A DNA stretch of 64,000 bases from a virus. The position numbers were made by a program, and so were the translations under genes. Where the stretch lies: the IMG/VR virus record IMGVR_UViG_3300019487_000020, positions 1 through 64,000 of that record. One strand, written 5' to 3'. A model generated the notes under the pieces. That model searched no databases. It was not told where the DNA came from and saw only the letters and a list, made by a program, of their open reading frames with translations. Positions 13,390 through 53,734 of this stretch are shown here, in pieces (positions within the stretch are counted from its first letter, which is position 1; every line of letters starts with the position of its first letter).

Positions 13390-15927
13390 TTACCCAGCCG
13401 ACTGCTGGACCTGGGTGATTTCAATCGTGATCGGCACGAAGTAGATGCTGGTGCTCAGCTTAACTTCGACACTGACCGCCATCGTAGGCCCGTTGATCGT
13501 TACCTTGGCGTTCTTGAAGCCCAGCGGCGCGTCGTCGCTGGAGGTGATGACCTTCTGCTTCTTGTACTGGTCCATCTTGGACGCCAGGAAGCTCAGAGCC
13601 GTGTTGGCGCTGACGTCTGCCAGGCTTTGTCCCACGAACGCCCTCTGCATGGAGGCGCTGAGGTCGATAGCCAACAGGTCCGCCAGGTACACTGCCTGCA
13701 AGCTGTTGTACACGAAGTTCGTGTCGAAGCCGTAGGTGGTCTGGTCGCTGACCCACTTGGCTGCGCCGCTGTCCTTTTGCAGGATTAGCAAGCCTGCGTC
13801 AAGCGCGTCCTCGACGTCACCCGGGTTGCCAGAGTCAAATCCGGCTGGGTCCTCGAAGTCAACCACGTTGGCAAACTTGTTTGTGATGCCCTTGTAGAAG
13901 CCCGCGGCCTGCATGCCCGCTGCGATGGCTGCCGAGTGCCAAGGGAGGAAGCTGCGGACCACTCCGCCCGAGTCAACCTGGCTGGACTTCTGAGGACAGA
14001 AGTCGACGCGGAAGTTACCCAGTGCCTGAGCCTTGCTCTTGGCATCTGAGTAGGCGCCCCAGAAGGACAACATGGCGATGCGGTTCTTCTTGAGCTTCGG
14101 CGTAGACATCTTCAGACAGTGGCTCTTGGTGGCTGCGTGCACGGCGTCGATCGAGTAGGCGCTCGCGCTCTCCGTCAGGCCGTCGGCGATGTCGTCGGCT
14201 GCGTCTCGGGAGAACAGAGGAACCACGAAGTTGACGTCGATGCCCTCAAGCTGGGCAATGGCGTCCACGATGTCCGCTGCGCTGGTGGAACCCTTGGCTC
14301 CGCCGGCCAAGAAGGCTGGCGACGCCATAGGCGTTGGAAGGCCGTCTACGTCAGCGGCATCGAATTCGACTGCGCGAGACTGTGACACGGCCTTTTTCCA
14401 GTTGGCAAGAGACTTCTTGACTCGTCCGGGCTCGAGGCTTGCTGCCGTAGAGCAGATGCCGATTGCAGTTACCTTGTCCAGGTTCGTAGCCGGAGCCTGC
14501 TGGCCTGCGGCTGTGGCTTCTGCGCTGTATCCTGTCTTGGAAGCTAGGAACTCGGCAAGGTCCTTGACCGTGGCAAAGTCGCTGAGCTTGACGCCAGACA
14601 GCGACGCGCCGGTGCCACCTGCAACGGTGGTCGACAGGATGCCAGCCGCGCTTATGGACAACGTGGCGGACGTTCCTTGGTAGCCCACTTGAAGCGCTAC
14701 CTCGCCAGCCGCGTTGAGGGCCTCGTTAAGGCCGGTGTCGCTTCGGTTGACGTCAAGCTCTACTTCGCTCTCAGCATTGGAAACATAGAGGTCGGCGGCA
14801 AGCTCGATAGCAGCCAGGTCGCCGGGGGTTGAGTCGATAAGCTCGAAGGCTTTGCCCCATCCTTTTCGGTAGTTAGCTGCGTCCTCGTCGGCGAAGATGC
14901 GGATGGTGTCCGCAGCGGTGCCGGCTTCGCAGCTCAGTCCAGATGGAAGCTGGGCGTCGATCTCGGCTGCAAGCTCGGCCGCGGTGTCATGTTCGCTTTC
15001 GTCGGAGCTTAGGGTGATGACCGTGGCGGCTCCGCCGTTGTTTCGCACTGAGAACGACAGCCCGTTCAACGCCGTAGCGTCGAACAGCCCGCCCTGCGCG
15101 GTGATTGCGATGGAGAAGCCTGCTCCCACGTCGAAGTTGGCTGCGTCCTCCGCTTCGCCGTCTTGAGATGCGGTAACGCTGACAACGTTCAGCAGCACAG
15201 TGGCGGCGAACGTGGACAGTGCGTCAATGGCTAGCTGGGTTGCCAGCGCCACGTCGTCGGCGGTGTCGCCGGTGGTGATGTTGATCTGGACGCCTGTACG
15301 GCCGGCAGGGGCCGGGTCGGTTCCCACGCCGTCCTTCTTGTACCAGCCGTAGTACTTGATGCCGTTGTTGCCGGCCTGGAACGTGAAGTACTGCCCAGAG
15401 GTGATGGCAGCCGCTGCCGGAGTAGTGATGTCGAATTCCTCGGCGGTGGCTCCTGCGTTGGACAATGCTGCAATGGCGTCGGAGGTGATGGAAGGCCCGT
15501 CCTCGAGCTGCGAGGCCTTGATCTGGTACTTGATCTTGTTGCCGTCCGCCCCCCAGTTCTGGTCTTCCAAGGTGCCGTAGTCGGTGTCGATCAGCGCGCT
15601 GGCCTTGGTTCCCTGGTTGGTCTTGAGGATGTAGATCCTGTTGGCCGAGCCCTGGATGTTGGCGTCTGCGCTAGGGGCCGAAAGTGCGCGCATTGCGTCG
15701 ACGATTGGGCCGCGAATATAGGCTCGCGCCACTCGGTCCAGCTGGTCGGGCGTGAAGAAGTTGTCCTTCAGCACTTTCGTGTCGAAGCTTTCTCCGCCGT
15801 CGGCCTCGCCGACGATGACGATGTTGCCGCTAGACGCTACTCCGACCGGGGTGCTTTGCACCTTTACGTCGGGATACGCACCCGGGGTGTTTGTATTGAT
15901 GAAGCTTTCAGTTAGCCGCTGAGCCAT
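13390..15927 (-). CDS. contractile tail sheath protein
   Basis: 845 aa. The N-terminus TPGAYPDVKVQSTPVGVASSGNIVIVGEADGG resembles the sheath PGVY..GV.TS..A.VG signature. A large Ala/Thr-rich insertion lies in the middle. Confidence 0.75.
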   Translation of the reverse strand: MAQRLTESFINTNTPGAYPDVKVQSTPVGVASSGNIVIVGEADGGESFDTKVLKDNFFTPDQLDRVARAYIRGPIVDAMRALSAPSADANIQGSANRIYILKTNQGTKASALIDTDYGTLEDQNWGADGNKIKYQIKASQLEDGPSITSDAIAALSNAGATAEEFDITTPAAAAITSGQYFTFQAGNNGIKYYGWYKKDGVGTDPAPAGRTGVQINITTGDTADDVALATQLAIDALSTFAATVLLNVVSVTASQDGEAEDAANFDVGAGFSIAITAQGGLFDATALNGLSFSVRNNGGAATVITLSSDESEHDTAAELAAEIDAQLPSGLSCEAGTAADTIRIFADEDAANYRKGWGKAFELIDSTPGDLAAIELAADLYVSNAESEVELDVNRSDTGLNEALNAAGEVALQVGYQGTSATLSISAAGILSTTVAGGTGASLSGVKLSDFATVKDLAEFLASKTGYSAEATAAGQQAPATNLDKVTAIGICSTAASLEPGRVKKSLANWKKAVSQSRAVEFDAADVDGLPTPMASPAFLAGGAKGSTSAADIVDAIAQLEGIDVNFVVPLFSRDAADDIADGLTESASAYSIDAVHAATKSHCLKMSTPKLKKNRIAMLSFWGAYSDAKSKAQALGNFRVDFCPQKSSQVDSGGVVRSFLPWHSAAIAAGMQAAGFYKGITNKFANVVDFEDPAGFDSGNPGDVEDALDAGLLILQKDSGAAKWVSDQTTYGFDTNFVYNSLQAVYLADLLAIDLSASMQRAFVGQSLADVSANTALSFLASKMDQYKKQKVITSSDDAPLGFKNAKVTINGPTMAVSVEVKLSTSIYFVPITIEITQVQQSAG

Positions 15928-15930
15928 CGC

Positions 15931-16230
15931 TTATTCTCCCTTTTCCTCAAGCCCGAAGTGCCTCAGGCCATCTTCGAATCTGTCCTCGCTGGTGGCGCCA
16001 ATGGAAGCCAAGTGGGCCCACAACGTTTCTTCTAACTCTCTGGGCCTGCCGTACTTGCGCCTGTTCAGCGCCCAATAGGACCTGAACTTCTCGCGCGCGT
16101 CTCCGCTGGCCTTCTCAGCCCTTGGCCTCTTGGAGGCGGCCATAGCAAGCCTCATCTGCCTGGCCAGCTCCAGTTTTTCCTGGACCGTCCGCTCCCTGCT
16201 TTTGCTTTCCTCAGACTTCCTTCTGGCCAT
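15931..16230 (-). CDS. hypothetical basic protein
   Basis: Complete ORF, tightly packed with its neighbours. Confidence 0.6.
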   Translation of the reverse strand: MARRKSEESKSRERTVQEKLELARQMRLAMAASKRPRAEKASGDAREKFRSYWALNRRKYGRPRELEETLWAHLASIGATSEDRFEDGLRHFGLEEKGE

Positions 16231-16661
16231 TACTTCCTCGATGCCTTCTTGGAGATCACTGCGCTCATGAACTTCTTGAGCGGCCTCTGGGCCTTATTTG
16301 ACTTACCTGCTGTTTCCATGGCACATGCCGGGCAGTCCTGGTGGCATCCGCTCGGCGAAGACCAATGGTCGGGCTTGTCTTCCTCGCCTTCCTTTTTGAT
16401 CACCTTGGTGTTGTCTCCAGAGGCCTTCCCGGTCTCCTTGTCGCTTGCATCGCTGACCTTGTACTCGCGCCGTTCTTCCTTGCTTTGCGGAGCGACAGAA
16501 TCCTCAATGCGGTCTTGGCCTTTGGCATCCTGCGCTTTGGGCTCTAGTCCCTTGTCGCTTGACAGCATGTCTTTGCTCTGGGCTTGTGCCTTGCGTATCA
16601 TTTCCTCGGCTTTTTTCAAAACCGTCGAGGCAACTTCTCTGGCGCTATAAGTTTTCGACAT
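16230..16661 (-). CDS. hypothetical Lys/Glu-rich protein
   Basis: Complete ORF with an ATG start. Confidence 0.6.
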   Translation of the reverse strand: MSKTYSAREVASTVLKKAEEMIRKAQAQSKDMLSSDKGLEPKAQDAKGQDRIEDSVAPQSKEERREYKVSDASDKETGKASGDNTKVIKKEGEEDKPDHWSSPSGCHQDCPACAMETAGKSNKAQRPLKKFMSAVISKKASRK

Positions 16662-16693
16662 TTGCTCCCGATACCTCCGGTCCTGCTGTAAGA

Positions 16694-17206
16694 TTAGCGT
16701 TTGCCTCTTACCCTCTGCAGGAAATCCCTTAGTTTGTAAGACTTTAACTTGGAAGGGGTGTCAATGGACACCTCTTTGTCTTGAGACTTGGGCATAGAGC
16801 CCAGCTTCGGCGGCTTGGCTGCCATTGACATGTTGCCCACTCCTGGCGCTTTCGAGGGAGACGCAGGTGCCTTGGGTGCTGCAGCGCCCTGGCCTTCCAG
16901 CCTTTGCTTGCCCATCTGGAAGCGCTGCTTGGCGCCTGCGTAGCTGGCCATCTGGTCCCCGAGCATGTCCTTGTATAGAACACCTTCGGGCGTGGCGGGC
17001 AGGCTCTCCTGCGGAACCTGGGGCTTGTAATTCGGGTCCCTAATGTCCGCTAGGGCTTCCTTGGCGGAGGCCATGCGTTTGCGCATCTTGTGAAACAAGT
17101 AGTTGGCGAGCGCATACTTCGGCTTTCCACCGGGCCCCTTACCAGCAATCGACTTGGCCTTGGCCCACTTCTTCTCGTCTTTTTTGTCTTTCACAAAGCC
17201 TGGCAT
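16694..17206 (-). CDS. hypothetical Lys/Pro-rich protein
   Basis: Complete ORF with an ATG start. Confidence 0.6.
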   Translation of the reverse strand: MPGFVKDKKDEKKWAKAKSIAGKGPGGKPKYALANYLFHKMRKRMASAKEALADIRDPNYKPQVPQESLPATPEGVLYKDMLGDQMASYAGAKQRFQMGKQRLEGQGAAAPKAPASPSKAPGVGNMSMAAKPPKLGSMPKSQDKEVSIDTPSKLKSYKLRDFLQRVRGKR

Positions 17207-17228
17207 GCAGCACCTTAGATTTCAGCGG

Positions 17229-18251
17229 TTATTCGCTTTCGTCCCCTTCTACAGTAGTCCACAGCTGCTCACCTGGGTCGTCCAGCTCGTCAGGCGGGTC
17301 CTGGCTTATGATCTTGATGCCCGGAAGCTCGCTCTCGCCTTCTCCGTCCTTGATCTGTAGCGACTCAATGATTCTCCTAGGGGTCTTCAGCCATGTGTTC
17401 TCCACCATGCCCGTCAGAGTCACGTAGCGGCTCCATGCGTTCTCGGCGCCTGGCTCCGAGATCGAGTCGTTGGGGGTGATCGGGCCGGAGCTAATGGAGG
17501 ACTGGGTGAAGTCGTTGGCCTCGAGCAGCCCCTCCCTGTAGCGCAGCAGAGCGTACACCACTATGGCGTGAAGCCACATCAGCTGCGCTGTGTCGCCCAC
17601 CACGTGGCACCCTATGGTGTAGGACTCCTGGAAGAATGAGTGCTCCCTGCGGGCCCTGTAGAACTGGTACTTGGGCACCACGGCGAACTTGCTCACGGCC
17701 GGCAAGTTGGTGCCGGCGTCTATAAGCAGGCCGTTGTCGCCGCCTAGTTCCTTGATGACCCACCCTTCCCCGTTGGCTGGATTCACTAGGACCATGCCTG
17801 GGGCCACTGCCCTGAGGTCCACCTCGGAGGGCGCCTCTAGCAGCCCCGACGCCTGGTCGTAGGACGAAGGGGTGAACGCCTTGACCACGAAGGGTATGGT
17901 CTTTACCCCATCGCCGGGCATTATGGTCTCGACCACCGAGGAGGCATCGGCCATATGGCGCATATCCTCGCGCTCGGAGGAGGAGCCTAGCTCTATGGTG
18001 ATGCAGGGGTACTGGTCGCGGTCTATCCTGTGGCGCATGTAGACGTCGATCTTGTTGCCGCCCCCGGGGCCGTCGGAGCCCAGCCACTCCTTGCACCTGT
18101 CTATTTCCTTCTGGCCATACTTGTCCCTGAGGTACTGGTTGTCCACGAACTGGCCCATCATGTCCTGAATGAGCCAGGGGTTGCCCCGTACGTCGTCTAG
18201 GGCTAGTTCGATTGCGGTTTTTATTACGGCGTCGCCGTTGAATAGAGCCAT
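17229..18251 (-). CDS. virion-module protein, function unknown
   Basis: 340-aa ORF whose ATG follows AAGGGAG. Confidence 0.65.
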   Translation of the reverse strand: MALFNGDAVIKTAIELALDDVRGNPWLIQDMMGQFVDNQYLRDKYGQKEIDRCKEWLGSDGPGGGNKIDVYMRHRIDRDQYPCITIELGSSSEREDMRHMADASSVVETIMPGDGVKTIPFVVKAFTPSSYDQASGLLEAPSEVDLRAVAPGMVLVNPANGEGWVIKELGGDNGLLIDAGTNLPAVSKFAVVPKYQFYRARREHSFFQESYTIGCHVVGDTAQLMWLHAIVVYALLRYREGLLEANDFTQSSISSGPITPNDSISEPGAENAWSRYVTLTGMVENTWLKTPRRIIESLQIKDGEGESELPGIKIISQDPPDELDDPGEQLWTTVEGDESE

Positions 18252-18258
18252 GGCTCCC

Positions 18259-19023
18259 TTAAGATTGGTCCAAGTACTTGTCTAGGATTGAGGGCATGAT
18301 GTCCTTCTCCCAGACGTCCTCGGCCCACATGAGCGCTAGGTCCATGAGCTTGTCGCCCTGCCGGCCCGGGTGCATCCACCGGCCGTCCTGAATGTGCTTC
18401 TCGCTCACCATCCTGAAGGTCATTATGTCCCTGCGGATAATGCCCCTGGAGGTCATGCGCTGGGTTATGGTCAGGCCGCTCAGCGCCGGCGTGGTGGCCT
18501 TCTTGGTGGGTTTGGCGCTGTCCAGGTTCAGCCTGTGCAGCACGCCAAGCCTGGGATTGCCAGAAGCGTCCCGCTCTATGCCCTTGAACGGTATGCCTTC
18601 CTTTTTAAGCTCTCGCTTGAGCTGGGCAACGATCTCCTGGGCCTTGGCGGGCATCTGCGTGGGTGCCTTGCCGTGGTCGAACGGTATGGCCTTGTACTTG
18701 GTGCCGTCCTTCGCCATCTTGGCGTTCTTGCGCAGCAAGTCTTGGACCATACTTCCGCTCTTGCGGCCTTCCTCTATCCATAGCGCAGGCTCCCCCAGGG
18801 AGACCACCCACACTCCGGGCATCACCTCCTCGAAGGTCAGGTTGTCCGTGTACTGCTTGCGGGAACTCTTCAGCCTCTGCTGGGCCAGCTCGAGGGTCTT
18901 GGCGTGCGTCATCGAGGCAAGGCTTTTGACTCCCTCTTCCAGGGCTGCTTGGACCTGCTGCTTGACCTCGCCGAACTGCGCGGCAATGGCCTCTGCGTCG
19001 ATTTTGAGCTTTAGTGCGCTCAA
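18259..19023 (-). CDS. virion-module protein, function unknown
   Basis: TTG 19023 follows GGAGGT. Confidence 0.6.
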   Translation of the reverse strand: MSALKLKIDAEAIAAQFGEVKQQVQAALEEGVKSLASMTHAKTLELAQQRLKSSRKQYTDNLTFEEVMPGVWVVSLGEPALWIEEGRKSGSMVQDLLRKNAKMAKDGTKYKAIPFDHGKAPTQMPAKAQEIVAQLKRELKKEGIPFKGIERDASGNPRLGVLHRLNLDSAKPTKKATTPALSGLTITQRMTSRGIIRRDIMTFRMVSEKHIQDGRWMHPGRQGDKLMDLALMWAEDVWEKDIMPSILDKYLDQS

Positions 19024-19244
19024 GTGTTCCTACCTCCGAAAGCTACAGGGTCGCCGCCGCTGTCGAGGGCTGCGCCACGCTTCCTGTTTACCCACCTAGT
19101 GAGGCCAGTCTGGTTGTCGATCACCTTCTGCTCGCCGTAGTTGTTTATGGCGCCTTCCGGCTGCCTGGGCTTGGGCACGTGCTTAGTGGTCTCTTTGGCG
19201 GGTAGGCGCCCGATAGGTTCGCCGACCCGCCCTAGGCTTTTTTT
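19020..19244 (-). other. candidate -1 frameshift site and 72-codon extension of the 19232-20734 gene
   Basis: The slippery run is A7 (19238-19244, read as CCA AAA AAA). A 6-nt spacer and a 7-bp GC stem (19225-19231 / 19197-19203) follow. The -1 frame is open and GC3-rich down to TGA 19020-19022. Confidence 0.35.
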
Positions 19245-20734
19245 GGCGGGGCACCCTCCGCGTCATTGTATTGGGCTCCTGCCTGCGGCCCGTCCTGGTC
19301 TGCGACCTCGTCCCCGCTGGCCTGGCCAGCTGCAACGTCCTCGTCAGACACATCGCCTTCTGGAGGAGCCTCGGCCCCGCCACTTATGCCCATGGCCCTG
19401 GCCATAGCGACCATGGTCCTAAGCATCTTGATGCAGGAGGCATACAGCCCAGGGTTCTCCTGGCGGGTCTTCTCCACGAAGTCCCGGTTGGCCTTGAAGC
19501 CCTCGAGAGCCTCTCCGAGCATCTGCTTGATTTCATCGTGCCCGCCGTCGGCCGGAACGCCTGCCTGGTCTGCTGGGGGAGCCTCCTCGCCCTGCCCTGG
19601 AGCCGCTGCTTCGTCGTTCGAAGACTCCAGCGAATCCCTAAGCAACGAACCCATGGATGCCACGTTTTTGTCTTCAGGCTGCTCCTGGTCATCTTCGCCA
19701 TCTTCCTCCAGGCCCGTGCCTGCAGCCAAGTCTCTGTCGGTTAGGTTGTCCAGTATTGCGTCTGAGCCTTCGCCTTCTTCAGGCGGAAGATCATCAGAAT
19801 TTTCCTCAGGCGGAAGCTCGTACCCTTCTTCCCCTGGGGGAAGCTCGTCTGAGCCTTCTTCTGGGGAAAGCTCCTCACCGCCCTCATCCGGCAACATTTC
19901 ATCGGAGCCTTCTTCCGGTGGAGCTTCTTCTTGATCAGGCATTTCGGCATCGACGGCCGGCATTTCAGCATCTTGCTCTGGCAGTGCTTCACTGTCGTCG
20001 GACAGAGCTTCCTCGCCATCTTGTTCCGTCGGCATCTCCTCTTCAGCAGACTGAGCTTCTAGCGCCTCTTCTTCGCCGCCTTCTTCGCCGCCTTCTTCCG
20101 GGGAAGTAGCCTCTTCGCCTTCTGGCGCAGCCATTTCCTCAGGTTGCTCATCGCTGCCTTCATTCGGCTCATCGCCGCCCTCAGGCAGCTCAGTATTTTC
20201 TTCATCATTTGGTTCTCCCTCCTCGTCGGGCGGCAGTTCCCCGCTTTCCGATGCGGGAGCCTGCTCCTCGGCCGCTGGGGCCAAGTATGCTTCGTCTTGC
20301 TTACGTTCCTCGTATGTGGCGCCCTCGCCCATTGCGCGCGTATGTGCGTCCATCAGGAACTGGTCTGTTTCTGGGCTGTACTGTACAATTTGGTTCTTGC
20401 CGCTGAGCTTGCCTTGAATTAGGGCCTTGCCCGCTTCGCTGAGGGTGTTGCCGCAGCCGATGGTCATGTTGAAGCCGCTTTTGTTCTTGATGATCTGGCG
20501 AATCTTCTCCAGGTCCTGGTACTTGTCGGCCGGTATGCTGAAAGTTCCCTCGTCTCCGCCGGAGCTAATCCTGCGTCCGCCGACTGACATCACCCAGCTA
20601 AGCAGGTCTTGTATTCCGCCATCGATCTTAGCACTAACTTGGCTCAGAAGCTCTGGGTTGTCCCCTAAAACCGCGCGCCCTACCTGCTTGCCTGCGTCGT
20701 CCATGTCCGCCGCTATGAATAGTTTCTCGTTCAC
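19232..20734 (-). CDS. mCpol/GGDEF-like nucleotide cyclase (palm) domain protein with a roughly 300-aa acidic Pro/Glu/Asp repeat region
   Basis: The N-terminus reads FIAADMDDAGKQVG..RISSGGDEGTFSI..NMTIGCGNTLSEAGKALIQGKLSGKNQIV. This gives a metal-binding DxD, a GGDE motif and a ..AK..GKN-like tail, as in Cas10 palm, mCpol and GGDEF domains. Confidence 0.55.
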   Translation of the reverse strand: MNEKLFIAADMDDAGKQVGRAVLGDNPELLSQVSAKIDGGIQDLLSWVMSVGGRRISSGGDEGTFSIPADKYQDLEKIRQIIKNKSGFNMTIGCGNTLSEAGKALIQGKLSGKNQIVQYSPETDQFLMDAHTRAMGEGATYEERKQDEAYLAPAAEEQAPASESGELPPDEEGEPNDEENTELPEGGDEPNEGSDEQPEEMAAPEGEEATSPEEGGEEGGEEEALEAQSAEEEMPTEQDGEEALSDDSEALPEQDAEMPAVDAEMPDQEEAPPEEGSDEMLPDEGGEELSPEEGSDELPPGEEGYELPPEENSDDLPPEEGEGSDAILDNLTDRDLAAGTGLEEDGEDDQEQPEDKNVASMGSLLRDSLESSNDEAAAPGQGEEAPPADQAGVPADGGHDEIKQMLGEALEGFKANRDFVEKTRQENPGLYASCIKMLRTMVAMARAMGISGGAEAPPEGDVSDEDVAAGQASGDEVADQDGPQAGAQYNDAEGAPPKKA

Positions 20735-21618
20735 GATGAGTTCCTCCGTCTAAGCGCCTCTAACAGCATCTCTATGTTTTCAGGGTCCCATCCCTTGGAG
20801 AATCGAACCTGTACGCCCTTCTCGTGCTTCCTGACGAACACCTTGCGTTGCATGTCGTCCCCGTAGCATACGCACGCGCTGAAGGCGCCCTTTGCAAATA
20901 TGACCTTGCCGCAGTCCGGGCAGTCGGCGCTCTCGCCTTTGGCCATCTCGATCACAAACTCTCGCGGCTTGCTCTTTTTAAGCGCCCTGGTCCTAAGGAA
21001 CTGGCTAAGCGCCCTAGGCTTCCTGGCCTCGGCCGGCCTATCCTCCGGCTTGCCCTGGGCCTGCGCCGCCTCGCCCAGCCTGCGCAGCAGCATCATGCCC
21101 ACTGCCTCGCGCTGCTCCAGCTTTTTGGACACTACTTGGTCCACTAGTGCGTGCAGCGCCACTCGGTCGTCCACGAGCTTCTGCACCTTGGTTTCTAGAT
21201 CCTCGCCGGGTCCCCCGGGTGTGGTCTGCTCGAAAGAACGCTCTCCGTACATCTCGAACGCAGTCATTATGACCAGGCCCACGCTTGGCAGCGTGCGGTT
21301 TTTGAACTCAGCGACCTTCTTGCCCTCTTGATCGATCGTGCCCGAGTAGACGTCGGGGCCGAGCTTGTCTATGTGCATCATTGCTGGCCTGCCGTCCACC
21401 GGCAGCTCGGTGTCGAGGTGCTCGCCCTGCTTCATGGGCTCGAGCTTGTGGTACAGGAAGGACAGCACCGCCCTGGGCACTATCTGGAGCGCTGTTTTAA
21501 GCTCCTCGTGGTCCACCACCGTGTTGGTGCCTGGCTTGTAAAGCTCAAACTTGGCTAGCTCGGCCATGCCGCCTTCTCCGAGGGTCTTTCTGAGGAAGGT
21601 GTCAGCGTGACGGCTCAA
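20731..21618 (-). CDS. hypothetical protein with C-terminal Cys cluster
   Basis: TTG 21618 follows GGAG. The Cys cluster is CPDCGKV..ACVCYGDD. Confidence 0.6.
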   Translation of the reverse strand: MSRHADTFLRKTLGEGGMAELAKFELYKPGTNTVVDHEELKTALQIVPRAVLSFLYHKLEPMKQGEHLDTELPVDGRPAMMHIDKLGPDVYSGTIDQEGKKVAEFKNRTLPSVGLVIMTAFEMYGERSFEQTTPGGPGEDLETKVQKLVDDRVALHALVDQVVSKKLEQREAVGMMLLRRLGEAAQAQGKPEDRPAEARKPRALSQFLRTRALKKSKPREFVIEMAKGESADCPDCGKVIFAKGAFSACVCYGDDMQRKVFVRKHEKGVQVRFSKGWDPENIEMLLEALRRRNSS

Positions 21619-21630
21619 GCGCTGTACTCC

Positions 21631-22080
21631 TTAGCTCGGCTCGTTGGGTAGCTCTGTGCGTATGGAGCTTTCGTCGTTTACGATGAAGCACAGCAGGGTT
21701 GCAGCGCTCGCAATGGCGTGGGTCTTCAAGTACAGGGAGATGTAGGTCCACGACGCAGGCGCACACGGTATGCCGACTGCGCCGCCCGCGTCCGCTACCC
21801 CCGGGGCCAAGCTGGCCTGGCCGGCTACGCCCAGGGTGATCGAGCCCACTGCCGCGTTGTTGTTATAGACTGCAAGGGTCTTGCCCGCTCCGATCGAGCG
21901 CAGGGTGGTGGCGTCAGTGCTGTACCCGACTCCAACCCCGGGAGTTGGGATGGGCAGCAGGTTGTGGCCCATGTCCATGTTCTTCTGGGCACCCGCCGAC
22001 TCATTGTAGGTGAGGAATGGGATGCTGCCTAGGTCCTGGACCGAGTGTCCGGGCATGTTTCTTATGTTCTTTCTTGACAT
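21631..22080 (-). CDS. hypothetical Gly/Ala-rich structural protein
   Basis: Complete ORF with an ATG start. Confidence 0.6.
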   Translation of the reverse strand: MSRKNIRNMPGHSVQDLGSIPFLTYNESAGAQKNMDMGHNLLPIPTPGVGVGYSTDATTLRSIGAGKTLAVYNNNAAVGSITLGVAGQASLAPGVADAGGAVGIPCAPASWTYISLYLKTHAIASAATLLCFIVNDESSIRTELPNEPS

Positions 22081-22115: not shown

Positions 22116-23051
22116 CTAAGATTCACTCGGCTCGTCGTCCATAGCCGTCATGTCCACTTTGATCTGGCCCTTCAACTTGGCCGGGGTTGCCTCGAACTTG
22201 GGGGCCTCCCTGGTCCTGCTTGTCTCGTTTTCCCTCTGGCTGTCCTTGCCGCCGCGTTGCTGGTTGTGGTACACGTATTCCCTAACAACTACCGCGTGAT
22301 AGGGCATGCGCTCAGGCGCCCTGACTCCGCTGGTGGTCACGTTGGTCACCCTGATCTCCTTGGGCAGCGTCAGCACGTACCAGTACGCCTTGTACAGGTA
22401 GCGTATTGAAAACACCCTGCCCTCCCCGGTGTCCGGGTCGATGCCTGGGGAGTTGCCGCCTTCCTTCCAGCTTATGTCGCCGGCGCTGGTTAGCTCGAAG
22501 TCCCTGCCGCACTTGTACTCTACGCCTCGGCTGTCCTCCAGGTGCTCGACCTTGGTGGCCGGGAAGGCAAGCACGTCGTGGCGGTCCGGCTGGTGCTGGA
22601 CTTCCTGGTAGGTGGACACGTTCACGTCCGCGTCCTTGTCCGCTATGTACAGCCTGTCGCCCGGAGCCAGGTATATGCGCTCGCCGTTGGCGGAGCCGCT
22701 GCCGTCCTTGTTGTAGAACCTGGGCATGACCAAGCGGCTCTGCGACGGGTCTGCCATGCCGCTGTCTCCCCTGGACTTCTTGGTGGAGTTGTCCGTCATG
22801 GTGGCGGTGAAGCATCCGGCCCGCTTGTAGAGCATGCCGTTGCTGCTTATGGTGTCCAGGGTCTCGGACCTACGGTAGTCCCCGCGGTCCTTCTTGCCTA
22901 TTGGGCTTGGCATGGCCCGGAAGTGTATGAAGTCTGTGCCCAGGCCTGTGCTGAGCTGGTCTTGCTGCCTTAGGTTGAACGAGGCCTGGAACAGGTCCCC
23001 CATCCTCGGCAGCGTGTCTAGCTGTGGCCCTACGGCCGGACGCTTCGCCAA
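22116..23051 (-). CDS. virion-module protein, function unknown
   Basis: TTG 23051. 311 aa. Confidence 0.6.
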   Translation of the reverse strand: MAKRPAVGPQLDTLPRMGDLFQASFNLRQQDQLSTGLGTDFIHFRAMPSPIGKKDRGDYRRSETLDTISSNGMLYKRAGCFTATMTDNSTKKSRGDSGMADPSQSRLVMPRFYNKDGSGSANGERIYLAPGDRLYIADKDADVNVSTYQEVQHQPDRHDVLAFPATKVEHLEDSRGVEYKCGRDFELTSAGDISWKEGGNSPGIDPDTGEGRVFSIRYLYKAYWYVLTLPKEIRVTNVTTSGVRAPERMPYHAVVVREYVYHNQQRGGKDSQRENETSRTREAPKFEATPAKLKGQIKVDMTAMDDEPSES

Positions 23052-34230: not shown

Positions 34231-34908
34231 ATGAAAAAAATTAGAATGATCACTGTGGATGCCCAGGACGGGCTCGGAAAAACAACTTTAATTAACAACC
34301 TAAAGAAACTGTTCGCAAATCGCCCTATCCATTCTACCAGGCTTCTTGGTGGATCGGGGGAAGACGACTTCCAGCTTGCTTTGCGCAAAGTATTGCTGCA
34401 TCCTAAGTTTCCTATCAATTCTGTAGAGTTAGAGGAGCAGCTTTTTGCTCTAACGGACGTAGAGGGTATCAGAGAAGCAGGCAGGTTTTTGGCATCTACG
34501 CCTGGAGGAATAGTATTAAAAGATAGAGCCTTGGCCAGCCATGTCTGCTATGCGCTTGCCAAGTTTATGACCGTGCACCAGATCGAGCGTTGCCATGAGC
34601 AGGTTATCTACGAAGAGAAGAAGCTCAGCAAGGAGTATGGTTCTTTAAATATCATATTGGCCGCCACTGAGACTGATTTTGTTATAGACCGTATACGCAA
34701 GCGTGCGGCCTTGACTGGCGAGCCAATCGTGGAGCGTTTGGAAAATGAGCAAGTTCAGTGGTCAGTTATGAATGCAATGAGATCGTTTCCAGACCACGTG
34801 CTTGCGCAAGGGCTGGAGTACAGACTCTTGGAGGTCGCGCCCCAGGACTCCATACAAGACGTGTTTGCGAAGGCGAAGGCCATCCTAGACAACTACGAAA
34901 TCGGCTAG
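34231..34908 (+). CDS. thymidylate-kinase-family (d)NMP kinase
   Basis: ATG follows AGGAG. The P-loop is DAQDGLGKTT, KDRALASHVCYA matches the Tmk DR(Y/H) motif, and DRIRKRAAL is a LID-like segment. Confidence 0.6.
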   Translation: MKKIRMITVDAQDGLGKTTLINNLKKLFANRPIHSTRLLGGSGEDDFQLALRKVLLHPKFPINSVELEEQLFALTDVEGIREAGRFLASTPGGIVLKDRALASHVCYALAKFMTVHQIERCHEQVIYEEKKLSKEYGSLNIILAATETDFVIDRIRKRAALTGEPIVERLENEQVQWSVMNAMRSFPDHVLAQGLEYRLLEVAPQDSIQDVFAKAKAILDNYEIG

Positions 34909-39193: not shown

Positions 39194-40582
39194 TTAGCTA
39201 AGCTGCCCGCTGATGTTGTCCAGGAGGACGTTCTTGCGTGGCTGATAAACGGCCAGGCAGCAGAACCGGAAGTGTGCTTCCGGCAAGCTGAGGTCGTTGA
39301 TTGCTAGCTTCAGCTTGCTGTACGGAGCGAGCTGAGGCAGGGCCATCGTCGAGCTGTCGACGAGGAACCCAGTGACCGAGCCAGGTTGGCGGTTGCCCAA
39401 GTCACTGAAGACTGGGTTTCCGGCGCCTTGCGCGATCTTGCCGATGAACTTAGCCGAGGCAGCCGAGCCGTTGGCGCTAGAGCGGTATACGTTGTAGTAC
39501 TTGGCTCCAGAGACAGCGGTGATCGTCGCCGTGACCTTGTTGCCAGCGGCAGCGACGGCCTGCGAAGCCGTTGCCGACTTCTCTGACTCACCGCGCTCGT
39601 TGACTGCCGTCACGTAGTAAATGTACGTGGCAGCTTCAAGGAGGGAGTTCGCAGCGCCTGCGTCAGCCAAGGCTGGAGCAGCAGGAGCGGCCGGAGAACC
39701 AGCGCGGCTGCGGGCCGGGCGGGTCTTGCCGGAAAGGAACCGGCTAGGCTCCATTGCGACGATGCTGGACGAGGTCCACTGCGTACGGAGGTTCGCCCCG
39801 CTTGCTTCTTGGGCCGCGCCCGCCAACACGATACGCTCTTTTGCATGAGCGATCTTGTTGTACGCGCTCAGGGAGATCGGATCGAGGAACAGCTTGTCAG
39901 CCGAGCCATGGTTCATGGCAGAGCGGACAGCCGAGTCTTCGATGATCGACTGAGTGAGGGCTCCGTTAGCCGAGAGGACGACCGTCTGGTCGGAGCCGTA
40001 CTCGGCGAACATGAGGTCCTGGGTGTTGGACTGTGCGTCCGACTGGCGAACTTGCTGGCCTAGGCCAACCATGTTCGGAACCTTTGCCACTGCGAGGGGG
40101 TTCCCGTCGAACACGCCTGCGTTCGAAAAGTCGTCCTGTCCACGGAACGAGTCGAACTCGATGTCGGCGCTGAGCTTGAGCGCAGCGTCCGAGCTGGAGC
40201 GGTCTTCGGCTTTGATGCCGTCGAACGCGCCGATCATGTTGGCGGCCACCGTCACACGGCGAACCGTGCTGTAGTAGGCCATAGGAACCACCGCGCGGAC
40301 GTAGGAAGAAGTGTCTTCCTCGCCAATGCCGCCTTCATACTGGGCAGAGCCCCCGAAGACGCCGTAGTCCAACTGGCGGTTGAACTGGTGGAGCTGCGAT
40401 TTTGCATCCTTTGTGGGGATCATCTTCTGCAGTTTGATGTGTTTATCTTCGAACGTGACGTTTTGCATCACGGGCGAAAGATCTTCTACTTGCAGAGCAG
40501 CGCCCTGTTGTAGAGCACTCGGAGCGGCGTTTTGACTGCCGGCTTCGAGGGCTTTCATAAGTTGCTGGAGTTGTTCGATCAT
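39194..40582 (-). CDS. major capsid protein with an inserted FN3/Ig-like domain
   Basis: 462 aa, directly downstream of the scaffold-like gene and followed by a strong terminator. The N-terminal ALEAGS..AL.QGAAL.VEDL is propeptide-like. The insertion is at aa 288-385 (YIYYVTAVNERGESEKS..YYNVYRS). Confidence 0.7.
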   Translation of the reverse strand: MIEQLQQLMKALEAGSQNAAPSALQQGAALQVEDLSPVMQNVTFEDKHIKLQKMIPTKDAKSQLHQFNRQLDYGVFGGSAQYEGGIGEEDTSSYVRAVVPMAYYSTVRRVTVAANMIGAFDGIKAEDRSSSDAALKLSADIEFDSFRGQDDFSNAGVFDGNPLAVAKVPNMVGLGQQVRQSDAQSNTQDLMFAEYGSDQTVVLSANGALTQSIIEDSAVRSAMNHGSADKLFLDPISLSAYNKIAHAKERIVLAGAAQEASGANLRTQWTSSSIVAMEPSRFLSGKTRPARSRAGSPAAPAAPALADAGAANSLLEAATYIYYVTAVNERGESEKSATASQAVAAAGNKVTATITAVSGAKYYNVYRSSANGSAASAKFIGKIAQGAGNPVFSDLGNRQPGSVTGFLVDSSTMALPQLAPYSKLKLAINDLSLPEAHFRFCCLAVYQPRKNVLLDNISGQLS

Positions 40583-42044: not shown

Positions 42045-42115
42045 CGGTGATTTTCCAAAACATCAATGCCCTACGTCGATGTAAATCTTCCAGTGCGATC
42101 GGGAGGACCTCCGTT

Positions 42116-44890
42116 TTGGCGACAAAAATCCAAGGCATAGCAGCCAGCGAGAACGTGGACAGCAGCGGCGAGAGGCTGCTGATCGCCGGCATGGACATCT
42201 CCAGCCTGGATAAGGATGGCGTGTTCACCTGGGAGCACGAGCTTAACGGCAAGAACCCAGCCCAGATAGTGGGCAAGATTTTAAAGGCCAAGAAGATATT
42301 CACCGAGCAGGACTGCGAGGACGATGCCCAGAGGAAGTTCTGGGACATGGCGCAGGTGCCGTACGTGTTCGTCATGGGCGAGCTTATGGACGACTACAAG
42401 GAGTCCGCCAAGGAAGTGGCCGGCATGCTGCACTACGACGCCGACCGGCCGTCGCAGAAGCCGGTGGTCAACTTCTCGATCGAGGGCTCCAAGCAGGAGA
42501 AGAAGGGCATGGAAGTGACCCGCTCGATCGCCCGCAAGGTGACCATCACCGTCACGCCGTGCAACAAAGCGGCCGTGGCCGAGCTTGTCTCGCCCGCGTC
42601 CCAGGACGGAGCCGCCTTCAACCCCGCCAAGGCCGACCCCAAGGAGCTTTTCATGAGCGATGTATTCAAGACAGAGACCCCGGCTGCCGAAGTGCTGCAG
42701 AAGGAAGAACGCTTCCAGGCCCCTGCCCGGCTCAAGGACTACAGGCCCAAGGCCGCCCAGGCTCCCGCCGGCTCCCCGGCCCCCAAGCTGAGAAACCCCA
42801 TGGCGTCGCCGTCGTCGCTACCGGGCAAGAAGATCGGCCAGACCAAGTCCGGGATGGACGTCATGAGCCACCAGCGCGCCAGGGAGTACAAGGGCTTCAG
42901 CGCGCAGGACCACGCCGAGGCCGCCAACTTGCACCACGGGGCAGCGCAGGCGTCCAAGGACCCTAGGATGGGCAGGCACCACCTGGACCAGATGAACTTC
43001 CACCTGGCCCATGCGCGCCAAGGCGAGAGGAAGCAGAGCAGGCTCAGCCAGGGCCGTGCCGCCAACAAGGCCCGCGGAATGACGCCGTTCGCCTCGGCCA
43101 GGCAGATCAACATGGACAAAGGCAGCAGGGCCATGCTGGGCAACACCATTGGCGGCAAGACGTTGGTCATGCAGAAAGACAGTCCGAAGCAAGCGCCCGG
43201 CAAAGTCAATGCACCCGCTGTCCGCGGCCACGGCCGTTTGGGGGTAGAGTTCGACCCGTCGGCGAAGCCCAGGGCCGGCTACCCGTCTAGCGCCAAGGAG
43301 CAACGGGAAAGGCTTGCAGCCGAGCATGCCCGGGTAAGCGAGCACTACAGACGCAAGCCAGAGGACCAGAAGCTAAAGAAGGCCATAGAGGCCGGCTCGG
43401 CCAATGCCGCGCCTGGTGCGCTAAGCCAAGGCGCTGCGCTTGGAAAGCAAAGGATGGAGAAAGACATGAAGAAGTCAGGCGGCTGGAGGGAAGACAAGGA
43501 GCTTAACCCGGACAGCGAGGTCAACCCGGCCTACAGCGCAAGCAACGGCGACCGCTTCCACGTGGCGCATGTCGCCAACAAGCACCCAAAGACCGGCCTC
43601 TACCATGTAGAGCACCACTCCACTGGCGGCGGCGGAATGGGCGACGACACCAAGTACCACTACAAGAGCAAGGGATTTAAGACCGCCCATGCGGCGCACG
43701 CCCACCTAAAGAGCTACGTGCACAACAGCGAGCCGGGCGAGGGCGGCGCGGAGCCGGCCAGCAGCAAGCACAAGCTTGAGCTAAAGCCGGAAGTCAAGAA
43801 GTCCGAGTTGGCCAAGGCCAGGGTGGATGAAGGCAGCAGCCTAGAGCACAAAGTAAGGGCTAGGCAGGCTCGCAATGACCGAGAAGTTGAAAGAACCAAA
43901 ACTCCTACTGGACAACCAACTCGCACTGCGCACTCTGGTCATAGACGTGCCTACGACCTGGAAGAGGGCAGGGTTCGAGGCGAAGGCTACAAGTCCTCCA
44001 TCAAACCAGCCGAGCGCAGGCACGGCGAGAGAATTGTTGGTCGGCCAAAAGAGCAAGATGAAAAATCTGGCGTGCACGTTCACTCCTCTACGTTCTCCCG
44101 TCAGGGCCGTAACAAGGCGGGCGAGGGCGCCACTGGAGCACTAAGCGAAAAAGGCGGCTCAAAATCATGGCGTCATGGCGGAAAGTACCACTCCTACGGC
44201 GGAGAGAAGGCTGCACACGAGGACGTAATGTCCGGCATAAAAAATACTAAGCCCAAGTTGGCCAAGGGTGAACGTCTGGCGTCTCACAACATTCCAAAGG
44301 ACCATCCGGTCCAGCCCCTCAAGCCCGGGCAAAAGGCAAAGGACCCTGCCACATGCGGGTCATGCGGCTTGAGCTGGGACGACGGAGTCTCCACCTCCAT
44401 GACGCCAACGCCGTCTGCCAGGTGCCCATTCGAGTCATTCCACAAGCCCGAAAAGGCGCGCAAAATGGACAAATCCGAGGCCCTGGAGCGCGCCGAGCAG
44501 GCGTGGTCGTCCTGGCCGAAGCGACAAGCGGTGGAGAAGTTTTTGGAAAGCCGGCTGCCCTCCATGGGCAAGTCCGAGCGCGACGCCCTAGGCAAGGTAA
44601 TCGCCTACCGGCACGAAATGCGCCAGGAAGCAGCGCTAGAGGAGCTTGCCAAGGCCTACAAAGGGCCGGAGACCCACTACGGCGCCGGGCAGCACCCTGA
44701 GCACGGAGACGTGGAGTACTCGTACAGCGTCTCCCGCGGCACCGAGAAGGGCCGTGCAATGCCAGACCACGTCAAGCTGCACTCCGCAGGCGTCAAGCAC
44801 GGCGTGCACGTACACCCCGACGACCTCAGCGACAAGGACAAGGACCACTTCAGGAAGCTGGCGGCCGACCACTGGAACTCCAGAAAGTAG
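42116..44890 (+). CDS. prohead-protease-like N-terminal domain fused to a long basic/His-rich region
   Basis: TTG 42116 lies 8 nt after GGGAGGA, and the track start at 42047 precedes the predicted transcription start. The N-terminus GIAASENVDSSGERLLIAGMDISSL..GVFTWEHE..IVGK resembles HK97-type prohead proteases. An internal segment mimics the capsid N-terminus. Confidence 0.4.
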   Translation: MATKIQGIAASENVDSSGERLLIAGMDISSLDKDGVFTWEHELNGKNPAQIVGKILKAKKIFTEQDCEDDAQRKFWDMAQVPYVFVMGELMDDYKESAKEVAGMLHYDADRPSQKPVVNFSIEGSKQEKKGMEVTRSIARKVTITVTPCNKAAVAELVSPASQDGAAFNPAKADPKELFMSDVFKTETPAAEVLQKEERFQAPARLKDYRPKAAQAPAGSPAPKLRNPMASPSSLPGKKIGQTKSGMDVMSHQRAREYKGFSAQDHAEAANLHHGAAQASKDPRMGRHHLDQMNFHLAHARQGERKQSRLSQGRAANKARGMTPFASARQINMDKGSRAMLGNTIGGKTLVMQKDSPKQAPGKVNAPAVRGHGRLGVEFDPSAKPRAGYPSSAKEQRERLAAEHARVSEHYRRKPEDQKLKKAIEAGSANAAPGALSQGAALGKQRMEKDMKKSGGWREDKELNPDSEVNPAYSASNGDRFHVAHVANKHPKTGLYHVEHHSTGGGGMGDDTKYHYKSKGFKTAHAAHAHLKSYVHNSEPGEGGAEPASSKHKLELKPEVKKSELAKARVDEGSSLEHKVRARQARNDREVERTKTPTGQPTRTAHSGHRRAYDLEEGRVRGEGYKSSIKPAERRHGERIVGRPKEQDEKSGVHVHSSTFSRQGRNKAGEGATGALSEKGGSKSWRHGGKYHSYGGEKAAHEDVMSGIKNTKPKLAKGERLASHNIPKDHPVQPLKPGQKAKDPATCGSCGLSWDDGVSTSMTPTPSARCPFESFHKPEKARKMDKSEALERAEQAWSSWPKRQAVEKFLESRLPSMGKSERDALGKVIAYRHEMRQEAALEELAKAYKGPETHYGAGQHPEHGDVEYSYSVSRGTEKGRAMPDHVKLHSAGVKHGVHVHPDDLSDKDKDHFRKLAADHWNSRK

Positions 44891-53500: not shown

Positions 53501-53734
53501 TAGGAAAAGCTGGCACCAGTCCTTGATTTCCTCGGCCGACGAAAGCATGGTAAGCATCATGACGGACAGGGACTTAAGCTCCAAGGCCCTGACCTGGAAC
53601 TCCTCGACGGTTAGGCCGGACTCCCGCGCAAGCGACTGCACGTCCGCGCCTGCAGCCCTTATAGACTCCTCGGTCAGGCTATGCAACCTGTTGGTCACTG
53701 TAGCCGGAAGTTTTCTGAAGGTGGACTTCTTCAA
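50552..53734 (-). CDS. terL: terminase large subunit interrupted by an intein
   Basis: The exteins total 667 aa. A Walker A-like LSAREGYKT is present, and the Walker B LMFIDEID lies immediately after the intein. A C-terminal nuclease-like region follows. The gene sits next to the portal region. Confidence 0.7.
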   Translation of the reverse strand: MKKSTFRKLPATVTNRLHSLTEESIRAAGADVQSLARESGLTVEEFQVRALELKSLSVMMLTMLSSAEEIKDWCQLFLGLDFPMGHIDPDSNSSPIEAMWEIYSTVRDNKGDVRPGFIMLSAREGYKTLSAAALEVLLLLHFQTTISHMAAIQTQSNKAVSYINAFFKKLEPLTQTAGWINTSSTKTRIEFNTPEGKTPYITVIICTMTGANCVSPDSMVRLSDGSSVRAAEISPGAMVLSWDAKDLCHKNVRVAGIAIAKKHARKICLADGRDLIVSDDHPVFTHRGWVSASQVRLGDKMQPLIGEPTHKSWVPVMDHQNKRTLEQMVLGTLMGDASLNILPSGSVRYQVSRSVKNMDYIRATRSVLERSGICCHTYVDNRGIVKLTTQVHPYFEEINRLIKRNGVKTISAEWLDRIKPEGLAYFLQDDGSANMQEVGLYKDHAFRIASFGFTLEGNEMLASWLGKIGYPAKVVKSTNQTKKVYTGLAMDMATSRKLSELVSPYFVPSMRYKLLAPTAEVGATFTIDSMDRVFLSRRPSGFAYTDKKVPNTKTGRRWLRRVRKAASLEVVHIEPVGMQDLVDVVLDTENPHLKNFYANGVLVHNSEHTNLMFIDEIDVVRDPMAYNEAKLIAGEFEGQFPVTVKLSTRKFAFGLMQKELDEAKEAGEEVLRWNIMDVTGKCPKERHMPHLPKVDLYAPKQLPLNKHLTREKWKLLPEADKEKYDLVKKAHAGCATCPLFTVCRTRLASRPDEDSGGLYKRIPTIINSFRKVPPDMGEAQLMCWKPSSKGLIYPRFENAFTEGNILKLEDAFTVVSGEKMPGITLDQLVAYLHSMGVKIVAGLDWGFRHEYAITVWAIIPNGQVWILHTYGEPGQEFPDQLKTGIELRDRFKVNKWYPDTAMPGNIKTFKKNGMPCPDFTKDVMGGINAVRSKIVDGLGRRWLKVLDTPENQKVITGFRVHHFVLDNAGNVTKTPDDEEYADVMDTVRYVGQNEFPIEGKGRGVTMTTADGSEPSAPKEERKEQATEHSKQMKQEIQKRLGPNSGAVKKGGKRGGFFFDV
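51920..53098 (-). mobile_element. 393-aa intein with a LAGLIDADG homing endonuclease
   Basis: The N-terminal splice junction is GAN|CVSPDSMV, block B is IVSDDHPVF, the LAGLIDADG motifs are LGTLMGDASL and AYFLQDDGSA, and the C-terminal junction is NGVLVHN|SEH. Confidence 0.85.

Follow-up and report, generated by a model that had tools for sequence, protein, structure and literature searches.

Why does a large phage keep, among the genes for its virion, a gene whose product begins like a synthase of signaling nucleotides? The question is raised by the minus-strand gene at 19232-20734 of the DNA analyzed here, positions 1 to 64,000 of the virus record IMGVR_UViG_3300019487_000020 in IMG/VR, which at its full length of 64,000 nucleotides we refer to as the window. 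An earlier note, made by reading the sequence, had described a protein in which a palm domain of the mCpol/GGDEF/Cas10 type is fused to an acidic, repeat-bearing tail of some 300 amino acids (aa), and had placed its gene in the virion module. The open reading frame (ORF) is as that note described it, with a GTG start and with the stop codon inside these coordinates; the protein, of 500 aa, begins MNEKLFIAADMDDAGKQVG, has by composition a net charge of -103 and an isoelectric point of 4.05, and recurs in identical form on metagenome contigs of ~155 kb. A GGAGGA ribosome-binding site lies 5′ of the GTG, which overlaps the stop of the upstream gene by 4 nt as GTGA, an arrangement consistent with translational coupling; scans for promoters and terminators around the gene found sites no more commonly than in shuffled sequence. 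By its sequence, the product belongs to the nucleotide cyclases of the mCpol type (minimal CRISPR polymerase, Cas10-like) and forms a branch of them specific to phages, and we observe that the gene is part of the core of a clade of Mx1-like myoviruses of ~150-180 kb, in which its synteny is strict. What is new here is a known enzyme fold in a phage, with a new architecture and a new genomic role: our searches of the mCpol and Panoptes literature returned bacterial defense papers only, in which no mCpol of a phage structural module is described, and, as the earlier note had supposed, the literature searched holds no characterized phage protein of this architecture.

The N-terminal sequence carries LFIAADMDDAGKQVG, RRISSGGDEGTFSIP and SEAGKALIQGKLSGKNQIVQY in that order, and the Pfam search which the earlier note had proposed as a check returned a match above the cutoff, with residues 6-119 aligned to the whole of the mCpol profile PF18182 (positions 1-114 of 114; E = 3.4e-10, 40.8 bits against a cutoff of 26.4). 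The NCBIfam model of mCpol (NF033576) gave E = 1.4e-8 and 35.4 bits, under its naming cutoff of 40, which is probably why the relatives have all been deposited as “hypothetical protein.” When the single sequence was searched against the PDB using phmmer, the Panoptes OptS/mCpol entries 9MNR, 9PD0 and 9NWN were the sole significant matches (E of approximately 3e-6), and a profile built from 18 relatives matched OptS with E = 1.4e-17. An AlphaFold2 model, built from an alignment of 50 sequences, has a predicted local distance difference test score (pLDDT) above 90 for residues 1-160, with the topology beta-alpha-alpha-beta-beta-alpha-beta-alpha-beta followed by two helices, and it superposes on the mCpol structures in the beta-alpha-beta-beta-alpha-beta arrangement of a palm, which resembles an RNA recognition motif (RRM). 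Foldseek placed 9PD0, 9MNR and 9NWN at the top of its ranking (target-normalized template-modeling (TM) scores of 0.82-0.85; root-mean-square deviation 2.0-2.8 Å, mostly ~2.1; 27-29% identity), followed by GTP cyclohydrolase III, GGDEF cyclases and Cas10, with E-values of 1e-4 to 1e-3 for the last two. That the N-terminal domain is a real homologue of mCpol we regard as virtually certain. The ~135 aa allotted to this domain in the earlier note do contain the palm (residues 4-119), but the folded unit actually continues to approximately residue 158, through helices 121-135 and 141-158, which are packed on the palm with pLDDT of ~90-97. These two helices include a conserved junction motif, EExKxDEAYL, and K145 and Y150 are invariant in the family alignment A2.

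The proposed catalytic set is complete in this protein (D10, D12, the GGDE of residues 59-62, K103, K109 and K113), and translation places the GGDE at the nucleotides where the earlier note had it. In the alignment to KpOptS, D10 corresponds to Asp6 and D61 to Asp57, i.e., to the two residues that hold the metals and are required for full activity (PMC12657218), and S34 aligns with S30 of OptS, one of two residues responsible for ATP selectivity (PMC12657230). The phage protein has the canonical GGDE where KpOptS has AADG. Residues 99-114 (SEAGKALIQGKLSGKN) contain the three lysines, and we take this motif to be the counterpart of the phosphate-binding helix “A..AK..GRN” of GGDEF proteins.

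To learn how widely these residues are kept, we can draw on an exhaustive HMMER scan covering 1.84 billion cluster representatives, which returned a family of 757 representatives at E ≤ 1e-3 (519 at E ≤ 1e-10); all residue and tail counts given out of 150 refer to the best 150 of these 757. HMMER was required for this, as a word-indexed protein search with the N-terminal 151 aa found no match, and megablast of a 6-kb region against 50,697 phage records found none either. Among the best 150, D12 is kept in 149, G60 in 147, D61 in 149 and E62 in 134 (with Gln in 14), G93 in all 150, G95 in 147, S34 in 141, K103 in 133, K109 in all 150 and K113 in 142. Asp occupies position 10 in 124 relatives and Asn does so in 25, and since this Asn is accompanied by Ser59 in 22 of the 25 cases, the N10/S59 pair looks like a maintained active-site variant and not like decay. 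The catalytic and phosphate-binding residues are thus near-invariant while overall identity in the main clade is only 30-50%, and all complete main-clade copies in IMG/VR have the full catalytic set. From these residues, the palm domain is quite likely to be an active enzyme in this phage. Pfam mCpol matched all 50 relatives tested (best E = 9.4e-19), 31 of which also matched Cas10-Cmr2_palm2 weakly, and neither PHROGs nor PADLOC had a match for the protein or for these 50 relatives. The database names of the relatives are all “hypothetical,” and the one apparent member in BFVD is an “uncharacterized protein.”

The palm is N-terminal in 126 of 150 relatives; 16 of 150 have N-terminal extensions, which are not fusions with the 295-aa protein encoded upstream. 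Three relatives have tandem palms, a hint of a functional dimer. In two of these (P0005 and P0108) the first palm is intact and the second degenerate, which resembles the pair of active and inactive palms in Cas10, and the third (P0049) has the motifs GGAD and GGDD, a signal-peptide-like start and no tail. Our scan of bacterial and archaeal genomes found one locus in 185,579 species genomes (one genome each), on a 14-kb contig of a metagenome-assembled genome, and the related viral contigs are of 150-181 kb; this near-absence from cellular genomes indicates that the family belongs to non-integrated phages.

How does this protein differ from the enzymes that its palm resembles? The mCpol enzymes were reportedly shown in 2025 to run Panoptes. 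This is a bacterial guard system in which a cyclic nucleotide, made constitutively by mCpol, carries the message “all is well” (PMC12657218, PMC12657230, PMC13577387), and mCpol systems have been described as fairly uncommon and as belonging to bacteria and archaea (PMC12657218). OptS, the constitutive 2′,3′-c-di-AMP or cA3 synthase of Panoptes, shares with the phage protein the fold over ~117 residues, the catalytic aspartates, the specificity serine and a C-terminal GK(N/D) helix. However, OptS is a stand-alone protein of ~120 aa, whereas the 500-aa phage protein is not minimal in this sense and is extended by two helices, by a polyacidic linker of 245 aa and by the three-helix module; and OptS is encoded beside its effector in a bacterial defense operon, whereas the phage gene lies among virion genes without an effector. 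With GGDEF and Cas10 proteins it has in common the palm/RRM-like fold, the GGD(E/D) hairpin, the first-strand Asp and the Lys/Arg helix. The likeness to GGDEF is at the level of the fold, as the phage protein has no Pfam GGDEF match at E ≤ 1, has the motif GGDEG, and contains neither an I-site nor sensory domains; unlike Cas10, it has a single palm of ~115 aa, with no second palm, no HD domain and no crRNP (CRISPR ribonucleoprotein) or CRISPR context.

Downstream of the palm, the single tail of ~300 aa described in the earlier note resolves into three parts, i.e., an acidic linker, a three-helix module and an acidic C-terminal end, and its extreme content of Glu, Asp and Pro is borne out. The linker (residues 151-395, 245 aa) contains 37% Asp plus Glu, 1.2% Lys plus Arg and 12% Pro, has a net charge of -88, and is predicted to be disordered (pLDDT mostly <50). 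The repeats of the type PEEGSDE(L/M)LP are real at the protein level, as loose units of ~9-11 aa of the type (P)EEGSDE(L/M)(L)PP at residues 270-325 (EAPPEEGSDEMLPDEGGEELSPEEGSDELPPGEEGYELPPEENSDDLPPEEGEGSD); Tandem Repeats Finder did not report them at the DNA level, where it found short arrays only, at 20063-20192. Among relatives the linker ranges from about 150 to 650 aa, and the tails have a median of 306 aa with 27% Asp plus Glu and 6% Lys plus Arg. The short helical C-terminus of the earlier note corresponds to the three-helix module, which the model predicts as helices 397-415, 417-426 and 428-447 (pLDDT 86-92) and which is approximately neutral, with 8 Lys/Arg, inside an otherwise polyanionic protein. 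This module is ~50 residues long, with the family consensus ..AxALxxFKxxKxxxExxKxxxPELYxxxIxMLxxMIEMAxxLG, and a hidden Markov model (HMM) of it matches 140 of 150 main-family proteins. It has no Pfam match, the best result of a PDB sequence search was Rop at a non-significant E = 0.018, and none of the other ORFs in the window contains it, which gives no indication of a “capsid-targeting” tag in common use. It is followed by 53 acidic-end residues finishing PPKKA, in which P496 is nearly invariant in alignment A1, where the consensus ends “PK.”

Some relatives carry further elements in this region. Repeated CxxC motifs (DCPYC / DCQYC...YDAK) occur within the acidic linker of 14-18 of 150 relatives (for example, P0003), a PGDMGL motif is present in the tails of 21 of 150, and DUF5661 (PF18905) is found in a few, mostly in the catalytically dead subclade described below; the short motifs among these may be docking or metal-binding sites.

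The genomic position of the gene is as constant as its fold. Scanning IMG/VR identified 57 related loci on contigs of up to 177 kb, and in 58 of 58 loci (these 57 and that of Mx1) the gene order on a single strand is [311 aa]-[149]-[295]-[mCpol protein]-[254]-[340]-...-[sheath], a position which corresponds to a connector/neck cassette upstream of the tail sheath. The placement in a virion structural region given by the earlier note is therefore upheld, with portal, major head protein and tail sheath around the gene and with a gene order common to Mx1 and SP-10. In Bacillus phage SP-10 (Herelleviridae) the same cassette, gp143-gp146 followed by the sheath, lacks the 149/295/mCpol trio, which indicates that the trio is an insertion specific to the connector cassettes of this clade; the downstream cassette genes of the window (13390-19023) include homology to SP-10 gp145.

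One branch of the family separates the fold from its catalytic residues. The sole cultured relative found in the phage database, and the sole match when our protein was searched against it with tblastn, is WNM70340.1 of Myxococcus phage Mx1 (25% identity), which has the same neighbors, fold and three-helix module but differs in its degenerate active site, its short and weakly acidic linker and its extended C-terminus. With the Mx1 protein as query, a further search brought up ~20 close relatives, whose contigs reach 181 kb. The active site has degenerated alike in all of them: they have Ser, Thr or Gln at position 10, LG/LN/LS-xx in place of GGDE, Thr or Val in place of K103, Gln, Ala or Met in place of K109 and Gly in place of K113, and D12 alone is retained. 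Pfam recognizes the palm fold of these proteins weakly, and the module HMM matches 24 of 24 Mx1-like proteins (E of 1e-9 to 1e-17). Their linker is ~90 aa, their post-palm region is ~15% acidic, and they have additional C-terminal extensions, some with DUF5661. The universally conserved core is thus the palm fold together with the helical module at a fixed gene position. Since this core includes the dead subclade, it points to a non-catalytic role, most simply a structural or assembly role, and the retention of the gene by the dead subclade implies that catalysis is dispensable for at least one conserved function.

Taking these results together, the reading that we favor, with a probability of roughly 40%, is that of a nucleotide synthase, associated with the virion or with its assembly, by which the cyclic-nucleotide immunity of the host may be manipulated. 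Of its two parts, the association with the virion or its assembly is on balance likely, and an action of the enzyme product on host immune signaling is possible but doubtful. The suggestions of the earlier note, that the protein could make or mimic immune second messengers and that its polyacidic tail could be a DNA mimic or a packaging signal, stand as hypotheses. The palm would be an enzyme that condenses nucleoside triphosphates. It would probably work, as OptS does, in the form of a dimer or tetramer, since the OptS active site lies between protomers (PMC12657218); the substrate would probably be ATP, because the OptS specificity serine is conserved as S34, and a cyclic di- or oligonucleotide would be the product. 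The three-helix module may dock the protein onto a virion or assembly structure, which would explain why the dead subclade has kept fold, module and gene position. An intact active site and a polyacidic linker occur together, the tails having a median Asp plus Glu of 25% with D10 (n = 115), 36% with N10/S59 (n = 23) and 15% in Mx1-like proteins (n = 20; Mann-Whitney p = 7e-10 for the tail-acidity comparison, uncorrected for shared ancestry), which suggests that the linker serves the enzymatic function, and this polyanionic linker might let the enzyme be carried and then released, either through expulsion when DNA enters the head, by analogy with an acidic scaffold, or through threading with the DNA, by analogy with virion-borne enzymes. 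Such enzymes are known in the T4 Alt ADP-ribosyltransferase and the N4 virion RNA polymerase, which are packaged in the virion and injected with the DNA. The phage mCpol would resemble them as an enzyme encoded with late or structural genes and useful at the outset of the next infection; however, it has no sequence or fold relationship to either. The most likely use of the product would be interference with host cyclic-nucleotide immunity, of which the clearest case would be supply of the inhibitory nucleotide by which “all is well” is signaled and Panoptes-type effectors are kept off. In its most specific form, i.e., a virion-carried, anchor-tethered cyclase making a Panoptes decoy nucleotide so that the phage can then use sponges and nucleases against CBASS (antiphage signaling systems based on cyclic oligonucleotides) or type III CRISPR and not set off the guard system, this proposal is improbable.

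Several observations weigh against the favored reading. The Mx1-like subclade keeps the gene without D10, GGDE, K103, K109 and K113, and Asn occupies the first metal-binding position in 25 of 150 relatives. The association of tail acidity with an intact active site is uncorrected for shared ancestry. Neither the neighbors nor the scanned parts of the window yielded a nucleotide receptor, effector, sponge or phosphodiesterase, no nuclease was found nearby, and the protein whose gene is coupled to that of the cyclase, of 295 aa, has no recognizable fold. Proteins inside the head that remain associated with the DNA tend to be basic, and a chain with a charge of -88 would be electrostatically awkward in a DNA-filled capsid. 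In addition, an anti-defense enzyme that is expressed late would come at the wrong time unless it is carried into the next cell.

The main rival to the favored reading, which we consider possible though rather unlikely, is a purely structural or morphogenetic role, in which the palm was recruited for oligomerization or nucleotide binding in a scaffold-like or neck assembly factor and a signaling nucleotide is irrelevant. The acidic chain would then be a scaffold body, and the three-helix end a coat- or connector-binding helix-turn-helix. The fixed position among connector genes in all 58 loci fits this proposal, as do the dead active sites of Mx1-like proteins that conserve fold and helical module, and the existence of the N10/S59 sublineage; the tetramers of OptS demonstrate that the fold can supply oligomerization (PMC12657218). 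On the other hand, an oligomerization module would not need catalytic and phosphate-binding residues that stay near-invariant at 30-50% identity, and the co-variation of N10 with S59 speaks for a maintained variant. A comparison with known scaffolding proteins leads in both directions. The scaffolding proteins P22 gp8 and T4 gp22 are helical, with an acidic body and an approximately neutral, Lys/Arg-bearing C-terminal helical hairpin. By analogy, the phage protein has a similar layout, with an acidic body, short C-terminal helices with basic residues and an N-terminal part that may oligomerize, but no homology to them was detected, and its linker is predicted to be disordered. Its linker length, from about 150 to 650 aa, also means that it is not a ruler. 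Furthermore, ~19 kb separate the mCpol gene from the major head gene, which is directly adjoined by a separate scaffold candidate, a 259-aa protein that is Lys/Glu-rich and probably helical (23% Asp plus Glu, 18% Lys plus Arg, weak coiled-coil matches) and is likely to be the conventional scaffolding protein.

The nucleotide could also be read by a protein of the phage itself, either the 295-aa protein or one encoded elsewhere in the ~155 kb genome, and serve to time late events (assembly, packaging, lysis or superinfection exclusion), with host immunity not the target. This is quite unlikely. The intact active site and the location in a late operon agree with it, and so does the conserved, overlapping pair with the 295-aa gene, which abuts or overlaps the mCpol start in most of the related loci. 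The 295-aa protein has an invariant zinc-ribbon-like motif, CPDC...C.C, and 265 homologues, all “hypothetical”; no Pfam match was found for the protein or any of these homologues, nor does it have a nucleotide-sensor fold or an NCBIfam or PADLOC match. Foldseek of its AlphaFold2 model (mean pLDDT 76) against the PDB gave a best E of 0.13, i.e., no structural relative and hence no clue to a receptor role, and the protein seems to represent a novel fold family, peculiar to this phage clade. Its gene stands beside the dead Mx1 copy too, so that the pairing is independent of catalysis, and we know of no precedent for a phage-internal nucleotide signal, which likewise counts against this proposal.

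All characterized mCpol enzymes belong to Panoptes systems, and the gene might accordingly be imagined as defense cargo, a Panoptes-like or mCpol system borne by a phage or prophage to exclude competing phages. We reject this as very unlikely: the neighbors are structural or of no recognized function, with no S-2TM-beta, CARF-TM, SAVED-TM or HEPN partner in Pfam, NCBIfam or PADLOC searches; the gene lies in the structural block and not in a variable island; and, where Panoptes is found in bacterial and archaeal genomes, often beside CBASS, this family is virtually absent from bacterial genomes (the single locus among 185,579 species genomes), so it is not prophage cargo. Finally, a chance resemblance or a non-coding artefact of GA-rich repeats, suggested by the low-complexity region and by plus-strand ORFs that overlap the gene (e.g., 19266-19934), has a negligible probability given the significant Pfam, PDB and Foldseek matches and the conserved synteny, and because hundreds of homologues validate the minus-strand frame, the plus-strand ORFs being by-products of the repetitive GA-rich coding sequence.

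A large mCpol clade confined to phages thus comes to light, with a fixed place in the structural gene block of big uncultured myoviruses and with an unusual tethered design. Should the enzyme prove active, these phages write cyclic-nucleotide signals and do not merely erase them, which would open a route to asking how phages evade guard-type immunity; if the decoy proposal were true, it would provide both a first counter-measure against inhibitory-signal immunity and a first example of a second-messenger synthase borne by the virion. If the enzyme is inactive, the family would clearly illustrate the recruitment of a polymerase fold of the immune type for virion assembly. The dead subclade, which includes the culturable Mx1, offers a natural contrast of active and dead proteins for experiments.

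Table 1. Features of the window discussed in the text, with positions, strand and the basis for each assignment.
Feature	Positions	Strand	Basis
mCpol gene (palm, polyacidic linker, three-helix module)	19232-20734	-	ORF list; GTG start with GGAGGA
mCpol palm, residues 4-119	20378-20725	-	PF18182; OptS profile match; AlphaFold2 and Foldseek
First-strand acidic motif D10-M-D12-D13	20696-20707	-	Alignment to OptS
GGDE hairpin, residues 59-62	20549-20560	-	Translation
Helix motif, residues 99-114 (K103, K109, K113)	20393-20440	-	Family conservation
Two palm-packed helices, residues 121-158	20261-20374	-	AlphaFold2
Polyacidic, proline-rich, predicted disordered linker, residues 151-395	19550-20284	-	Composition; pLDDT
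Loose acidic repeats, residues 270-325	19760-19927	-	Translation
C-terminal three-helix module, residues 397-447	19394-19546	-	AlphaFold2; module HMM
Acidic C-terminal end finishing PPKKA, residues 448-500	19235-19393	-	Composition
295-aa upstream gene	20731-21618	-	4-nt overlap with mCpol start; conserved neighbor
149-aa gene	21631-22080	-	Upstream syntenic gene
311-aa gene, phrog_1004 “virion structural protein”	22116-23051	-	Upstream syntenic gene
52-aa small ORF	19020-19178	-	tblastn; same position in >40 related loci
254-aa gene, phrog_16819	18259-19023	-	Synteny in 58/58 loci
340-aa gene	17229-18251	-	Downstream syntenic structural gene
170-aa gene	16694-17206	-	Downstream syntenic structural gene
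Tail sheath	13390-15927	-	Homology to annotated sheaths of Mx1, Dolphis and PHB04
2081-aa multi-GNAT protein	25232-31477	-	
phrog_772 protein, connector or “tail fiber”	32158-33129		
Major head protein	39194-40582		
Scaffold candidate, 259 aa	40596-41375	-	Directly upstream of major head gene
Portal	47707-49554		
Large terminase, LAGLIDADG insertion	50552-53734	-	
GroEL-like chaperonin	53742-55514	-	phrog_5725, E = 3e-78

Among the remaining features (Table 1), the 208-nt gap 3′ of the mCpol gene contains the 52-aa ORF, the stop of which overlaps the TTG start of the 254-aa gene as TTGA. With homologues of 42-64% identity, this ORF is very probably a real small gene.

We also considered the K-x-D-E-A-Y-L of the junction after the palm as a T4-type [L/I]-x-E prohead-protease site, in which L/I is rightly placed in part of the family, and did not adopt it. 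No T4-type protease was identified in the window, where the sole protease match is a gene of the ClpP family (61918-62919, plus strand) that belongs to the replication/repair block and not to the head module and adjoins a helicase, an AAA protein and an Mre11-like phosphoesterase. The head block is split between the portal region and the scaffold and head genes by a 947-aa ORF on the opposite strand (42047-44890, plus strand), which has no Pfam match.

Within the structural block, the 2081-aa protein contains at least three GNAT acetyltransferase domains, and its residues 60-185 match Mx1 WNM70344, whose gene is the immediate upstream neighbor of the Mx1 tail sheath. Mx1 encodes a giant NUDIX protein and a kinase at the corresponding spot upstream of its mCpol-like gene. 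Together these have the look of large multi-enzyme proteins, possibly delivered with the virion. Homing elements are present in the same region of the window, as two paralogous GIY-YIG-type homing endonuclease genes (phrog_314, E of approximately 1e-42 each; 33390-34418 and 31339-32142, both on the minus strand) flank the phrog_772 gene. The large terminase, of 1060 aa, has a LAGLIDADG homing-endonuclease region at residues ~326-514, which suggests an intein.

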